Positions 2,196-60,804 of a stretch of 64,000 bases of DNA are shown one piece after another. Numbering within the stretch: position 1 is the first letter of the stretch; each line of letters starts with the position of its first letter. Source of the DNA: a virus; the IMG/VR virus record IMGVR_UViG_3300037467_001462, positions 26,755 to 90,754 of that record; one strand, given 5' to 3'. Position numbers and translations under genes: made by a program. The notes beneath the pieces were generated by a model. It was not told the origin of the DNA, made no database searches, and saw only the letters and a list, made by a program, of their open reading frames with translations.

Positions 2196-3454
2196 ACCGT
2201 CACGATATCGCGCGCCGCCAGCTCGGCGTCCAGGTCCCGCACCGCGCGCGTGCTCGCCCACGGTGCAAGCTGGTGCCGGCCCTCAATGATTGCGCCTGCC
2301 AATCGGGGTGAACGGTTCTGTTCTGCCAGCTCTGCTGCCTCGCTGACGGCAGTAGCGGCTTCCTCGATCGAGTCGAGTTGGATCAAGGCGCGTTCCAGTT
2401 CGAGGAGGGTTACTGCCCGGTCGCGGACGTATTCGGGTTGCATCATGGCCAGCGCGTCGCGTGATGCCTGGGCGGCCTGTTCGGCGCGCCCGAGGATGGT
2501 GAGGCAGTTGCCGCGGTAGGACTCTTGGATGGCGCCGCCCATGAAGTAGGCGCGTGACTGCGATGGGTGTACTGGTTTGAGGCCCACCAGCGCGGCGTCG
2601 GCTTCGTCCAGCGATTGAAGGCACACCGTTTGTTGTCCGGCGATGGCGGCGGCCTCTGCGTTCCGGACAGCGACGTAGGCGCGTAGGTGCCTGTCCGATG
2701 ATTGGGCGGCCCATGAGCGGGCGGCTACCGCGTAATCTACTGCGACGCGGGGTCGTTTCTGCCAGGTGGCGAGTTGGGACAGATGGCACAGCATGTATGC
2801 GCCGAGGTCGGAATCCTCTGCCTCGTGCGCGAATTCGCGTGCCTGCCCGTAGAGGCGCCCGGCGGTCACGTAGTCGCGGACGTCCCACGCCAGAGAGCCG
2901 GCTAGCCCGGTCCATTCTGCGTATAGCGACAGCAGCATCGGCCGTATCGCTGGGGGCGCGTCTTTCAGCAGTGCTTCAGTGACCTGCTGTTGCGCGATCA
3001 CCATTCCTTGCGCGGCCGGCGAACCGAGGAGGTCGTCTAACCGCATCGCCTGGTGCAGGGTTGCCCGCATCAGGTTCACTGCCGCTATGTCTGGTCGTCC
3101 GGCACCGGACAGTAGCCAATTTGCGCGTTCGGTCGCATCGCCCAGGCTCAGGGTGGCTAAGGCGCCTGCGCTGGCCGCCGCGCCAGCTTTCAATAGCTCG
3201 CGCCGCTTCACGTCGTCGTCATCCTCCGGTTTCCGCAGGACAGTGAACCGGGCTGCCGCATCTGCGGGTGCTTTTGCGAGCATCCCCGCGTACAGCGATT
3301 GCGCGTGGGATCCGACCGGCCGTTGCCCTTTTTCCCAACCGCGGACCGAGCGCTCCGACGCTCCGAGCGTGGCGGCGAACTTGGCCTGATTCATCTGGTA
3401 CGCGTGCCGTAGCGCTACGCACTCGATGGCGGTCCATGTGGCGACGATATCCAT
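2192..3454 (-). CDS. XRE-family HTH regulator with TPR-like C-terminal region (actinomycete NsdA-like)
   Basis: N-terminal HTH (QAKFAATLGASERSVRGWEKG), DVKRRELL motif, Ala-rich helical repeats. Confidence 0.85.
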   Translation of the reverse strand: MDIVATWTAIECVALRHAYQMNQAKFAATLGASERSVRGWEKGQRPVGSHAQSLYAGMLAKAPADAAARFTVLRKPEDDDDVKRRELLKAGAAASAGALATLSLGDATERANWLLSGAGRPDIAAVNLMRATLHQAMRLDDLLGSPAAQGMVIAQQQVTEALLKDAPPAIRPMLLSLYAEWTGLAGSLAWDVRDYVTAGRLYGQAREFAHEAEDSDLGAYMLCHLSQLATWQKRPRVAVDYAVAARSWAAQSSDRHLRAYVAVRNAEAAAIAGQQTVCLQSLDEADAALVGLKPVHPSQSRAYFMGGAIQESYRGNCLTILGRAEQAAQASRDALAMMQPEYVRDRAVTLLELERALIQLDSIEEAATAVSEAAELAEQNRSPRLAGAIIEGRHQLAPWASTRAVRDLDAELAARDIVTV

Positions 3455-26644: not shown

Positions 26645-27067
26645 GTGAGACGTCTCCTGATCACGGGCAGCCGCGATTGGGTCGACCGCGGAAAAATGCG
26701 TGCCGCACTCCGGGACGCTTGGCGGGAACTCGGACACGACACCATCCTCGTGCACGGTGCAGCACCAGGCGCCGACACGATGGCCGCCGAAATCTGGACC
26801 AGGGGAGGGCTATCGGTCGAAGCGCACCCCGCCGACTGGGACCGCCCCTGCGACACCAGCTGCTACCACCGGCCACGCGAAAAGAACGGCCGCTCCTACT
26901 GTCCACTCGCCGGCCATTACCGCAACCAACACATGGTTGACCTCGGCGCCGACCTACTGTTGGCGTTCCCGATGCCTGGTTCGCGCGGCACCTGGGACTG
27001 CCTGCGCCGCGCGAAGGTAGCCGAGATACCCAGACGGATCGTCTACTCCCCGGGCTCCGAGAAGTAG
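26645..27067 (+). CDS. SLOG / DUF2493 (YspA-like) protein
   Basis: LLITGSRDW, LVHGAAPGAD, AG..RN..MV, LAFP...SRGT. Confidence 0.88.
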   Translation: MRRLLITGSRDWVDRGKMRAALRDAWRELGHDTILVHGAAPGADTMAAEIWTRGGLSVEAHPADWDRPCDTSCYHRPREKNGRSYCPLAGHYRNQHMVDLGADLLLAFPMPGSRGTWDCLRRAKVAEIPRRIVYSPGSEK

Positions 27068-57684: not shown

Positions 57685-58194
57685 ATGGCACGTAAACGCA
57701 CCATCCCCATCGAAACCCTCGTCACCACCCAACAGAAACGCAACTACGCCCTCGAACTCCGCCTAGCGGGCAAGTCGCAGCGCGAGATCTGCGAAGAAAC
57801 CGGGTGGGACAAATCCAGCGTCTCCCGCTACATCAGCGCCGCTATCGCAGACATCACCCGCGAAAACGCCGAAGAGTACCTGGAAATGGAGCTATCGCGG
57901 CTCGACGCCATGCTCGCCGCGATCTGGCCCGACATCATTTCCGGTGAAAAGGGCGCCGAATGGAAAATCGACCGCGCCCTCGCCATCATGGAACAACGCG
58001 CCAAGCTGACCGGCACCTACAAGGCCGCAGAGCTGAAGGCTATCGCTGAAGCCAAGGGCGGCGCGAACGTCGAAACCGCGTCGATGATCGTCGACCTGTT
58101 CTCCGCAATCACCAACGCAGTCGGAACCGACGTAAGCAACCCAGACGACAACGACGAAGGCGACGAGCCCCCGGACTCGGACGGCGACCAGTGA
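57685..58194 (+). CDS. terS: Terminase small subunit (HTH)
   Basis: ALELRLAGKS..EI, ELSRLDAML, RAKLTG; overlaps the terL start. Confidence 0.85.
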   Translation: MARKRTIPIETLVTTQQKRNYALELRLAGKSQREICEETGWDKSSVSRYISAAIADITRENAEEYLEMELSRLDAMLAAIWPDIISGEKGAEWKIDRALAIMEQRAKLTGTYKAAELKAIAEAKGGANVETASMIVDLFSAITNAVGTDVSNPDDNDEGDEPPDSDGDQ

Positions 58195-60479
58195 TCAACC
58201 TGGATGCGCTGCCCATGTCCCGCAAGCAGCTCGCATCCATGGTGTCCTACACCCACTACCGCACCACAATCTGGTCCGGCGCAGTCCGCTCCGGCAAAAC
58301 CATTTCCTCCATCGCAGCGTTCTTCCACGCCGTCGCAGTCGCCCCCACCACCGGCCAGATCGTGATCGTCGGCCGCACCCTGCAAACCATCGAACGCAAC
58401 ATCCTCGACGCGATGCAGGACGTCACCATTTTCGGGCCGCTCGCGCACGAGGTGCACCACACTCGCGGATCCAACACAGCAGTGATCCTCGGACGCACCG
58501 TGTGGTTGATCGGTGCCAGCGACGTCCGCGCAGAATCCAAAATCCGCGGCCTCACAGCCTGTCTCGCGATGGTCGACGAAGCCACGCTGCTACCGGAGAA
58601 CTTCTGGTCACAGCTCGGCGCCCGCCTGTCGGTGCCTGGCGCGAAACTGCTGGCAACAACCAACCCCGACAACCCATCGCACTACCTCAAGGTCAATTTC
58701 ATTGACCGGGCGCATGAGCGTGGGATGCGGTTGAAGGCATGGAACTTCACCCTCGACGACAACCCCGGTCTCGATGACGCCTACATCGCGTCGTTGAAAG
58801 CCGAAAACCAGGGCCTGTTCTATTTGCGCAACATCCTCGGCCAATGGGTCGCAGCAGACGGCGCAGTCTACGACTGCTTCGACCCCGCCAAACATGTTGT
58901 GAAGTGGACGGAACTGCCAGACATGCAGTTCTATTTGGGGATCGGCGTCGACCACGGCACCACAAACCCGACCGCCGCCACCCTCCTCGGCCTGGGCACA
59001 GACAACATCCTCTACGCGGTCGACGAATGGCGATACGCGCCGTCCAACAAGGAAGCCCGCAAAACCAACGTCCAACTGTCCGAAGGACTCCGGACATGGA
59101 TGGCCGGCCCGCACCACCCCTCCGAGGACCCCGATAACCCGCCGCGGTTGAAGTGCTACACGTTCGTTGACCCCGCCGCCGCCGACTACCGCGTCCAGTT
59201 GAAACAAGACGGACTCACCACGTACCCGGCGCAAAACAACGTCCTGTACGGAATCCGCACCGTCTCAGCGCTACTCAGCACCGGCCAGTTGAAGATTTCG
59301 GATCGCTGCCCGGAGTTGTTGAAAGAACTCCCCGGCTATGTGTGGGACACCAAGGCGACGGACGAGGGCAAAGACCAGCCGATCAAGCTGAACGATCACT
59401 CGTGCTTCGTTGCTGGGACGTTGGTGGAAACGATCGACGGCCCACAGCCTATCGAAACGATCCGGCCTGGCACTCTGGCGTTGACTCGTGCTGGCTATAA
59501 GCCAGTTATAGAGAGTGGTTGCACAGGAGTGGAGCCGGTATTTTCCGTCACACTTTCTGACGGAAGCTCGTTGGTGGGCACCGGAAATCACCCGGTCTGG
59601 GTGCAGGGCAAGGGATTCACGCGAATCGACGGCTTGCGTTACGCTGATAAACTTGATACGTGCAAAAGCGCGTCGAAGTTGCAGTATTCAAAGGCATCAA
59701 ATTCCGTCGCTACCCAGACTCGAAACATCGTTCCGACCAGGTCTATTACACACCGGGGATCGGCGACAAGCAGAACGGTTGGAAGCGGCTCCACGAAGAA
59801 ATCTGGATGGACTCCCACGGGGTCACCGAGATTCCCGAAGGCCACCACATCCACCACGTGGACCACGATCCTTCCAACAATGACCCGTCGAATCTGGAAT
59901 GCATTCCAGCAGGCGAACATCTGGCCCATCACGGCGAAGACTTCCGGAATGATCCAGAGCGAGTCGCGCGGCAGCGCGAACACATGGCAACAATCCGGCC
60001 ACTCACCGTGGAATGGCATCGCAGCGAAGAAGGCCGCGCCTGGCATCGCGAACATGCCCGCAAAATCTGGGACGACTGGCAGCCGAAGCAAGCCGCCTGC
60101 GACCACTGCGGGACCGAGTTCGAATCACCACTTCCTGGCCGATTCTGCTCGAACAACTGCAAGTCCTCGTGGCGACGAGCGGCTGGGCTCGACAACGTTG
60201 AACGCGCCTGCGTCATCTGTGGAGAGTCGTTCACGATCAACAAATACGCTCGGGGGCAAACCTGCTCCCGTAAGTGTCGTGGCCGTCTCCAGTCGCGCAA
60301 TTGCGCAGCCCGTGTACAACCTGACAGTGGCCGAGCAGCCTGAGTACTACGCCAATGGCGTCCTCGTTCACAACTGCGACTCACTCCGCTACTCGATCGC
60401 ATCGACCGAGCGCAAGTGGCGCAAATACGTGAAACTCGCCAGCGCTTCAAAGCTGGACTCGATGCCGGATGCGGCGTAA
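58191..60479 (+). CDS. terL: Terminase large subunit precursor with intein (762 aa; 438 aa after splicing)
   Basis: GAVRSGKT, MVDEA, TTNP, GVDHG, DP, DHS|CDSLRY. Confidence 0.95.
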   Translation: MINLDALPMSRKQLASMVSYTHYRTTIWSGAVRSGKTISSIAAFFHAVAVAPTTGQIVIVGRTLQTIERNILDAMQDVTIFGPLAHEVHHTRGSNTAVILGRTVWLIGASDVRAESKIRGLTACLAMVDEATLLPENFWSQLGARLSVPGAKLLATTNPDNPSHYLKVNFIDRAHERGMRLKAWNFTLDDNPGLDDAYIASLKAENQGLFYLRNILGQWVAADGAVYDCFDPAKHVVKWTELPDMQFYLGIGVDHGTTNPTAATLLGLGTDNILYAVDEWRYAPSNKEARKTNVQLSEGLRTWMAGPHHPSEDPDNPPRLKCYTFVDPAAADYRVQLKQDGLTTYPAQNNVLYGIRTVSALLSTGQLKISDRCPELLKELPGYVWDTKATDEGKDQPIKLNDHSCFVAGTLVETIDGPQPIETIRPGTLALTRAGYKPVIESGCTGVEPVFSVTLSDGSSLVGTGNHPVWVQGKGFTRIDGLRYADKLDTCKSASKLQYSKASNSVATQTRNIVPTRSITHRGSATSRTVGSGSTKKSGWTPTGSPRFPKATTSTTWTTILPTMTRRIWNAFQQANIWPITAKTSGMIQSESRGSANTWQQSGHSPWNGIAAKKAAPGIANMPAKSGTTGSRSKPPATTAGPSSNHHFLADSARTTASPRGDERLGSTTLNAPASSVESRSRSTNTLGGKPAPVSVVAVSSRAIAQPVYNLTVAEQPEYYANGVLVHNCDSLRYSIASTERKWRKYVKLASASKLDSMPDAA
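59403..60374 (+). mobile_element. Class 1 intein, 324 aa
   Basis: Block A CFVAGTLV, block B GTGNHPVW, block F VYNLTV, block G VHN followed by Cys+1. Confidence 0.93.
59660..60343 (+). CDS. HNH homing endonuclease nested out of frame inside the intein
   Basis: RLHEEIW...IPEGHHIHHVDHDPSNNDPSNLECI...HLAHH, plus two CxxC...CSxxC zinc fingers. Confidence 0.88.
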   Translation: MQKRVEVAVFKGIKFRRYPDSKHRSDQVYYTPGIGDKQNGWKRLHEEIWMDSHGVTEIPEGHHIHHVDHDPSNNDPSNLECIPAGEHLAHHGEDFRNDPERVARQREHMATIRPLTVEWHRSEEGRAWHREHARKIWDDWQPKQAACDHCGTEFESPLPGRFCSNNCKSSWRRAAGLDNVERACVICGESFTINKYARGQTCSRKCRGRLQSRNCAARVQPDSGRAA

Positions 60480-60549
60480 AAACCGCATCCGACCTCAGGG
60501 TTTGCGCCTCCGAATACGATTGTTCTAACAGTTGATCTAGGAGACGGAA

Positions 60550-60804
60550 TTGTCGCTCGCGGATGACGTGCACGCTGCACAGCAAGAAACCCGCAAACCG
60601 AACCCGTGCAAAACCGGGCTGTTCTTCCAAAGCGTGGACGAACGGGACCGGACCGCCGCGAGAGCATTCCTCGAAGACGGCGGCGCGGTATCCGACCTGT
60701 GGCGCATGTGCGTGAAGAACGGGTGCGAAGCGGCAGAAACACAGTTCCGGAAACACTGCCGGGGAATGTGCTCCTGCGCGCGCGGTTTGGAGAGTGTCGC
60801 TTGA
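60550..60804 (+). CDS. Small Cys-rich hypothetical protein
   Basis: AGGAG RBS; HCRGMCSC end; coupled to the phosphoesterase. Confidence 0.7.
   Translation: MSLADDVHAAQQETRKPNPCKTGLFFQSVDERDRTAARAFLEDGGAVSDLWRMCVKNGCEAAETQFRKHCRGMCSCARGLESVA

Follow-up and report, generated by a model that had tools for sequence, protein, structure and literature searches.

A stretch of viral DNA of 64,000 nucleotides (nt), hereafter the window, carries inside its terminase gene terL what is very probably a composite selfish element: a class 1 mini-intein together with an overlapping gene for an HNH_3/double-zinc-ribbon homing endonuclease that would be translated separately. The window comprises positions 26,755 to 90,754 of IMG/VR record IMGVR_UViG_3300037467_001462, a complete virus record of 90,754 bp with direct terminal repeats, and all positions below refer to the window. 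Four lines of observation carry this interpretation: the anatomy of the element, the pattern of selection on its two reading frames, its conservation across bacterial phyla, and traces of its recent transfer between terL genes.

An intein in terL and a gene between its splicing halves

The first 405 residues of the terL product are 48–54% identical to TerL of Streptomyces, Gordonia, and Rhodococcus phages. In the intein-less Streptomyces phage Vondra, TerL runs uninterrupted through this region (KVDDHSCDALRY), with the letters KVDDHS/CDALRY at the place equivalent to the junction (here and below, a slash marks a splice junction), while the window reads KLNDHS, an insert, and then CDSLRY. Excising 324 amino acids (aa) therefore restores the conserved DHSCDxLRY motif, and the spliced TerL is predicted to measure 438 aa. 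All hallmarks of a class 1 intein are present, namely C1, T60..H63, H323-N324 at the intein C-terminus, and a Cys as the +1 residue (at 60375). C1, T60, H63, and N324 are invariant in 50 homologous inteins (our conservation set, i.e., 50 non-redundant nested copies with junctions called by alignment), and the intein C-terminus follows the consensus VYNLxVExxHEYFANGxLVHN across homologues, its terminal Asn being again invariant. The original prediction, made from the letters alone, of an intein with complete splicing blocks that splits the DHS/CDSLRY motif is thus borne out.

A HINT fold is confidently predicted for the intein. In the AlphaFold2 (AF2) model, residues 1–88 and 289–324 reach predicted local distance difference test scores (pLDDT, block means) of 85–98 and 70–97, respectively, and a Foldseek search with this model retrieved the gp41-1, MchDnaB-1, Ssp DnaB, and Mtu RecA inteins at E-values of 2e-6 to 1e-3. 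The two HINT halves total ~125 aa and are separated by a linker of ~200 aa. For this central part, ~230 aa rich in serine and threonine and devoid of any domain had been proposed; the composition (31% Ser+Thr) and the disorder were confirmed, and the length was revised downwards. Specifically, linker residues 90–288 have a pLDDT of 39–49 and no secondary structure in the AF2 model, i.e., no recognizable fold was found in the middle part of the intein frame. The frame itself is continuous in the window, and the two halves sit on one open reading frame (ORF) rather than on separate ORFs as in a split intein or fractured gene.

Between the splicing blocks, on the same strand but in another frame, lies an ORF that matches the Pfam family HNH_3 (PF13392; E = 3.2e-11, 43.1 bits against a cutoff of 24.8), with no match to PF02945 (E-values up to 0.1) or to PF01844 in Pfam. 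Its catalytic residues H65, H66, N73, N74, N78, and H87 are invariant in the 50 nested homologues, the eight zinc-ribbon cysteines are all invariant or nearly so in the same set, and every one of these catalytic and zinc residues is intact in the window. The zinc-ribbon region has YacG-like and FCS-like structural matches, and the AF2 model of the whole protein, built on the alignment of 50 homologues, has a mean pLDDT of 94.4. The best solved match of this model is I-HmuI (PDB 1U3E), with a moderate Z of 7.0 over 112 residues at a root-mean-square deviation of 8.2 Å (model residues 8–133; VIA-align wide search, next match at Z 5.0), and Foldseek of the whole model against the PDB gave no match at E ≤ 0.001 (E = 0.57). 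We considered and rejected an assignment to the packaging-associated HNH proteins of the HK97 gp74 type, which are small PF01844 proteins needed alongside terminase for cos cleavage, as the protein in the window has 227 aa and belongs to HNH_3. The ORF, which ends in a TGA codon at 60341–43, almost fills the space between the HINT halves, overlapping the N-terminal half by ~7 nt and the C-terminal half by ~50–75 nt; its tail in the latter overlap is of low model confidence. Both frames are open across the entire HNH ORF in the window.

Table 1 Features of the terL element, in window coordinates.
Feature	Position	Strand	Basis
terL precursor ORF, 762 aa including the intein	58191..60479	+	ORF list; Terminase_6N, E 3.5e-10
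N-extein, 404 aa, ending ..IKLNDHS	58191..59402	+	Alignment with Vondra TerL and 49 other junctions
Intein, 324 aa, class 1; Cys at 59403, Asn at 60374	59403..60374	+	Junction alignment
Intein N-terminal HINT half, residues 1-88 (Cys1, block B T60..H63)	59403..59666	+	AF2, Foldseek, conservation
-10-like hexamer TAAACT, 6 nt upstream of the HNH GTG (candidate)	59648..59653	+	Candidate promoter, inferred
TGA stop in the HNH frame, one codon before the GTG	59654..59656	+	Sequence
Nested HNH endonuclease gene, 227 aa, GTG start, TGA stop	59660..60343	+	Frame +2 relative to terL; HNH_3 match
Intein-frame linker, residues ~89-288	59667..60266	+	Stop-free, Ser/Thr-rich, predicted disordered, dN/dS neutral
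HNH catalytic core, Pfam HNH_3 match, aa 43-87	59786..59920	+	Invariant H65, H66, N73, N74, N78, H87
Two CxxC...CxxxC zinc ribbons (C147, C150, C163, C167; C184, C187, C202, C206)	60098..60277	+	Conservation, structural matches
Intein C-terminal HINT half, residues 289-324, ending ..GVLVHN	60267..60374	+	AF2, conservation
C-extein, 34 aa from CDSLRY, plus stop codon	60375..60479	+	ORF list; junction alignment

Distribution, layouts, and transfer of the element

At least 575 stretches in IMG/VR encode relatives of the window HNH, and layouts were counted on the best 80 of these loci. Full-length HNH homologues are 36–52% identical to the window protein. A blastn search of the region against deposited phages returned two short patches only, and DNA-level relatives are therefore absent among deposited phages. 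In 68 of the 80 loci, the HNH lies within a long ORF that spans it whole (730–960 aa where the contig is complete), and the relative frame is that of the window in every one of these 68 (host frame = HNH+1). Tetrasphaera phage TJE1, Acinetobacter phage Highwayman, and Clostridium phage phiCDHM19 share this layout and relative frame, as do four (Byssovorax, Prevotella, Burkholderiales, and Coprococcus) out of five contigs of metagenome-assembled genomes (MAGs), a sample drawn from a single-protein scan in which the prophage distribution is under-sampled. The relative frame is thus shared by more than 70 independent loci, and an HNH in frame with the intein was found in no homologue.

In all 50 nested copies, the junctions are canonical and fall at the homologous site of TerL (DH[x]/C[FL]xAGT ... 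EYFANGxLV[HS]N/C[x]DALRY); the copies have guanine-plus-cytosine (GC) contents of 0.30–0.70 and exteins of both the Terminase_6N and Terminase_3/3C types. Overall, this HNH/intein family is large, spans many bacterial phyla, and is not rare. Two insertion registers one codon apart occur, DHx/CDALRY (the window, L009, L017, and others) and DH/CxDALRY (L024, L046, L057, and others), and in three copies the +1 residue is Ser or Thr in place of Cys.

The 12 non-nested IMG/VR loci fall into four with a free HNH gene, four with a split intein, and four other contexts. Free HNH genes stand directly 3′ of an intein-less terL, and their products are 43–51% identical to the window HNH, about as similar to it as the nested copies are. 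At the split loci (L053, L067, L080, and L088), an ORF with the N-terminal part of TerL and of the intein (IntN) ends in a stop and is followed by the HNH, then by an ORF combining the C-terminal part of the intein (IntC) with the C-extein. Free-standing copies in cultured phages likewise adjoin terL or terS (BP10, PAE1, EauM-23, and CL2). In the annotations of TJE1 (L001), Highwayman (L002), and phiCDHM19 (L003), terL alone is recorded over the nested HNH; annotation thus misses the nested gene, and phage homing endonucleases are therefore under-counted.

Several cultured phages and individual loci add detail to these layouts. The N4-like Vibrio phage 1.245.O (L091; NC_055736, ~2380–3374) has a split terL intein whose IntN is closed by a stop codon, an HNH ORF of this family that fills a gap in the annotation with the same frame relation as in the nested form, and an annotated “hedgehog/hint domain protein” that corresponds to IntC plus C-extein and has its own GGAGG-N6-ATG. 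Two Acinetobacter phages carry this HNH family in different places, with a free-standing HNH upstream of terS and an intein-less terL in BP10 (L004) and the HNH nested in a terL intein in Highwayman. In Exiguobacterium phage vB_EauM-23 (L006, 1071–3112), the annotated TerL ends in KNNHSMAA and a stop, at the intein position of other phages; a free HNH of the same family follows 213 nt downstream, and the C-extein is unannotated. In L086 (1496–3636), TerL ends in DHDHSINITVEYKSEY and a stop, and a C-extein motif resembling MDTIRY precedes the HNH start in the same frame as the HNH. These last two cases may reflect truncation or rearrangement of the terL 3′ end by the endonuclease gene, or else an unrecognized recoding or split. 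In phi CD119 (L090), where terL is annotated as ter1, ter2, and a “hypothetical protein”, the broken terL is probably the same element plus old sequence errors.

Traces of recent transfer were evident at several loci. The 960-nt intein is 100.0% identical in L017, L019, L020, L021, and L022 (IMG/VR, GC 0.67–0.69), while the preceding 600 nt of terL are 80–81% identical and the downstream 400 nt ~60% identical; the flanks of this group are mosaic, with all four combinations present. Similarly, inteins and flanks are 99.4% and 90% identical, respectively, between L037 and L042, and between L057 and L078 the intein is 91.8% identical and the flanks 77% and 67%. Such identical inteins in diverged exteins indicate recent homing or recombination of the cassette. 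The distribution of the element is sporadic, and unrelated TerL families carry inteins at this one site.

These data also bear on an alternative in which homing is not the role of the HNH, or not its sole role, and the protein acts as a terminase-associated nuclease that aids packaging or another phage function, as in the HK97 gp74 type. All homologues examined are located either within terL or immediately next to terS, terL, or portal, and a functional link between HNH proteins and terminases has been discussed (PMC4422536, PMC3592412). However, the protein is an HNH_3 whose nearest structure is I-HmuI rather than a small PF01844 protein of the packaging type, and close TerL relatives such as that of Vondra work without either intein or HNH. 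The sporadic distribution, the identical inteins in diverged exteins, and the use of one site in unrelated TerL families further argue against a packaging role, and we consider it unlikely.

Selection on the two frames and the start of the HNH gene

In related pairs of nested copies, differences at HNH codon positions 1/2/3 numbered 14/8/34, 21/11/61, and 36/28/85. The ratio of non-synonymous to synonymous substitution rates (dN/dS, Nei–Gojobori) was 0.07–0.15 for the HNH frame in close homologue pairs and 1.0–1.9 for the intein frame (1.0–1.4 in close pairs), each estimate being biased by the other frame. Base composition within the overlap is consistent with this asymmetry: GC by codon position is 0.64/0.47/0.66 in the HNH frame, a gene-like pattern, and 0.47/0.66/0.64 in the TerL frame, an atypical one. 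When the synonymous codons of the HNH ORF were permuted, the TerL frame was stop-free in 3% of trials for the window, 10% for TJE1, 1e-4 for Highwayman, and 5e-5 for phiCDHM19. Moreover, the intein frame contains 4–12 stops in four free-standing homologues and none in any nested copy. The joint openness of both frames is not due to chance: the HNH frame is under purifying selection, and the intein-frame linker evolves neutrally yet is kept stop-free.

Taken together, these results agree with what had been read from the letters alone. An HNH endonuclease with two zinc-finger repeats had been proposed for the other frame, and it is supported by the HNH_3 match and by the eight conserved cysteines; both frames had been noted as open throughout, and the permutations and the stops of free-standing homologues give this openness its weight. 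The idea that the splicing frame needs only to stay open fits an intein-frame dN/dS of about 1 or more and the absence of a predicted fold, and the coding nature of the HNH frame is apparent from its low dN/dS, its invariant residues, its confident model, and a conserved start of its own with host-appropriate signals, described below.

A different reading of the same data is that the HNH frame is an inactive relic, i.e., that the element is in effect a vertically inherited mini-intein whose linker is junk. Decay after fixation is common among homing endonucleases, and the closest deposited homologue is only 52% identical to the window HNH, so that selection on the window copy is unmeasurable from deposited sequences alone. 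Closer relatives (~95–97% identical) were recovered as contigs from root-metagenome RNA libraries of another study, and of the 24 differences listed between them and the window in the HNH ORF, 17 fall at HNH codon position 3 and none at position 2. Given also the intact catalytic and zinc residues in the window and the low HNH dN/dS among homologues, a relic is very unlikely. Across terL as a whole (58100–60550), these relatives differ at third codon positions of the exteins, and the pattern shifts to the HNH frame in the overlap.

The HNH start codon, usually the sole candidate, lies at a conserved position in each nested copy, 12–15 codons before the RYP motif in four closely inspected copies, and in many homologues a stop codon in the HNH frame is found within ≤5 codons upstream of it. 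In most low- and mid-GC copies, GGAG, GAGG, or AGGA is found 9–16 nt upstream of the start (AAAGGAG-N9-GTG in phiCDHM19), and Shine–Dalgarno-like motifs occur in 21 of 32 low/mid-GC copies versus 5 of 18 high-GC copies. Among the latter, 11 of 18 have TANNNT at exactly −12..−7, where the background frequency per position is 0.0023. Actinobacterial promoters typically have a TANNNT −10 element ~7 nt before the transcription start, and leaderless mRNAs beginning with ATG or GTG are frequent. The hexamer is written in the intein codons D-[K/R/I]-[L/I] with the rare AGA, AAA, or ATA; AGA encodes five of five Arg within the hexamer, against a share of 2% among the Arg codons of these ORFs. An equally spaced TACAAT, TATACT, or TACGAT, without a Shine–Dalgarno site, precedes the HNH in four of five free-standing homologues of high GC; the ORF map puts the hexamer in intergenic DNA, past the terL stop, in three of these, the fourth being L085. 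This suggests that high-GC copies, including that of the window, may use a leaderless HNH transcript whose promoter lies within the coding sequence of the intein.

A conserved start of this kind is also what separates an independent HNH gene from one reached by programmed ribosomal frameshifting out of the terL/intein frame, which would yield a fusion of TerL-N and IntN with the HNH. Two overlapping ORFs on one strand and a GTG without a Shine–Dalgarno site would suit frameshifting. However, the TGA at 59654–56 stands one codon before the GTG and therefore leaves no room for a long upstream fusion, stops lie close upstream in many homologues as well, and no slippery heptamer was seen by eye in 59640–59670. 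With Shine–Dalgarno or −10 signals at the conserved start position and a separate HNH gene in free-standing and split-intein relatives, frameshifting appears highly improbable.

Finally, the chance that two compensating indels displaced an in-frame HNH is negligible: the window is a metagenome-assembled virus record, but the relative frame is the same in 68 of 80 IMG/VR loci, four of five MAG loci, and three cultured phages, which excludes sequencing error; a Logan contig (an independent assembly of a possible source run, soil metagenome) reproduces 58609–60700 with no differences; and the contigs of the ~95–97% identical relatives cover 59410–60442 without an indel. Compensating frameshift errors, or an HNH frame lacking conservation, had been named as findings that would overturn the original prediction, and neither was encountered.

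Proposed mechanism and relation to known systems

Under the interpretation we favor, that of a composite selfish element, a mini-intein would sit in the DH/CDxLRY motif of the TerL nuclease domain, its halves joined by a structureless linker of ~200 aa, and would excise itself after translation to give the 438-aa TerL. The HNH, encoded by the linker DNA in the +2 frame, would be translated on its own from the GTG at 59660; in the high-GC window the likeliest route would be a leaderless transcript from the −10 hexamer TAAACT, and in low-GC relatives a Shine–Dalgarno site. The free HNH could then nick or cut intein-less terL alleles during co-infection, and repair would copy in the intein together with the HNH (homing). 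Selection would accordingly act on three layers of one DNA, maintaining the HNH protein, keeping the intein frame free of stops, and preserving the start signals of the HNH. As for its origin, a free-standing endonuclease gene beside terL that targets the terL 3′ end may have repeatedly joined a mini-intein occupying that target, and split forms may have arisen from nested ones, or the reverse, through gain or loss of stops in the linker frame.

Several points weigh against this interpretation or narrow it. Splicing, HNH translation, the promoter, and the cleavage target are inferred from sequence and structural models, and in the TerL ORF the Pfam matches to Hint_2 (27.4 bits, cutoff 28.4), Intein_splicing (23.4, cutoff 35.8), and PT-HINT (21.7, cutoff 27.7) all stay below the gathering score, because the 200-aa linker interrupts the domain. 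The bias of dN/dS between overlapping frames applies to both of our estimates. The RNA-library runs enter as contigs only and carry no inference on transcription, strand, or 5′ ends, nor do their uncovered parts carry meaning. The window GTG has no Shine–Dalgarno site, and a sigma-70 consensus scan of 59300–60600, which needs a −35 element, found no promoter (and no terminator). In addition, the letters that resemble −10 and −35 elements double as codons of a conserved motif of the intein frame, RIDxLRYxD[KRI][LI], and part of their conservation may reflect the protein level and descent within one clade. Free, nested, and split states are interleaved in a quick tree of the HNH (Shimodaira–Hasegawa-like approximate likelihood ratio test, SH-aLRT) with many open forks and weak support, and nothing here rests on single branches.

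A wider proposal builds on the composite element and is more tentative; we put it at somewhat below an even chance. Three codes would be superimposed in one DNA: the intein frame, the HNH frame, and a host-adapted HNH start signal, the last being an embedded −10 with rare AGA/AAA/ATA codons that gives a leaderless mRNA in high-GC, actinobacterial-type phages and a Shine–Dalgarno site in low-GC hosts. The free (just 3′ of terL), nested (at the adjacent DH/CD site), and split layouts of one HNH could then represent a natural model for endonuclease acquisition and intein splitting. This layout series and the switch of start signals between host types offer a way to test the “splicing first, endonuclease later” model and to study how split inteins originated. 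More generally, a working enzyme can be encoded in one frame while selection does no more than keep the other open, and an essential phage gene would tolerate a meaningless segment of 200 residues only because an intein removes it.

The general design of the element is already published, in 2015 and in preprints of 2025–26. The earlier guess that it might be rare rather than new was therefore right about novelty and wrong about rarity, given the at least 575 relatives of the HNH in IMG/VR, and the window alone is a confirmatory rather than a new result. The 2015 case is the terL intein of Brucellaphages Tb and Pr (Perisivirus) with an out-of-frame HNH ORF (JN939331 ORF7/ORF8; PMC4422536). There too the HNH gene lies in another frame on the same strand inside a TerL intein, with two overlapping coding sequences annotated. 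Unlike in the window, however, that intein interrupts the N-terminal ATPase region rather than the nuclease motif, the frame offset is +1 rather than +2, and the HNH is a PF01844 protein with its zinc ribbons N-terminal to the HNH, i.e., in reversed domain order; the two HNH proteins share only a 63-aa local similarity at 29% identity.

Also of this design are actinophage inteins described by Gosselin, Arsenault, and Gogarten, which have antisense endonucleases or an endonuclease VII-like enzyme “in reading frame 3” and for which these authors propose invasion of inteins by free-standing endonuclease genes (bioRxiv 10.1101/2025.01.02.630785). Those with the frame-3 enzyme share with the window the relative frame, an intact splicing domain, an unstructured in-frame middle, and a nested endonuclease ORF. 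Their endonuclease is IPR004211/T4 endonuclease VII-like, whereas that of the window is an HNH_3 with two zinc ribbons, and their cluster is actinobacteriophage, whereas the window family spans many bacterial phyla. A tblastn search found no link to PhagesDB phages, the phages named in that preprint not being compared directly.

Other relatives of the design share parts of it. A cyanobacterial dnaX intein also holds an overlapping, out-of-frame homing endonuclease in an in-frame insertion, but within a cellular host gene (bioRxiv 10.64898/2026.09.14.751524). The insertion in ShiLan likewise combines an in-frame insertion with an out-of-frame HNH, which has a GTG start without a ribosome-binding site and for which leaderless-type initiation has been discussed, but it is devoid of any splicing domain (PMC11855218). 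Dassa et al. (2009) described fractured genes in which a free endonuclease gene lies between the halves of a split intein (PMC2677866). This is the layout of the window relatives L053, L067, L080, L088, and Vibrio phage 1.245.O, which have the same HNH and the same frame relation as the window; the endonucleases of Dassa et al. are GIY-YIG or Vsr-like, however, whereas the window family is HNH_3 and the window intein frame is continuous. I-HmuI, the HNH nicking homing endonuclease of the SPO1 group I intron, belongs to the same Pfam family as the window HNH, but it is intron-encoded, has a different C-terminal DNA-binding module, and is 15% identical to it. In the literature, we found no paper on an HNH_3 with two zinc ribbons at the TerL DH/CD site in frame +2. 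What goes beyond this literature is the switch between a Shine–Dalgarno site and an embedded −10, the free–nested–split series of one endonuclease family, and the mosaics around identical inteins.

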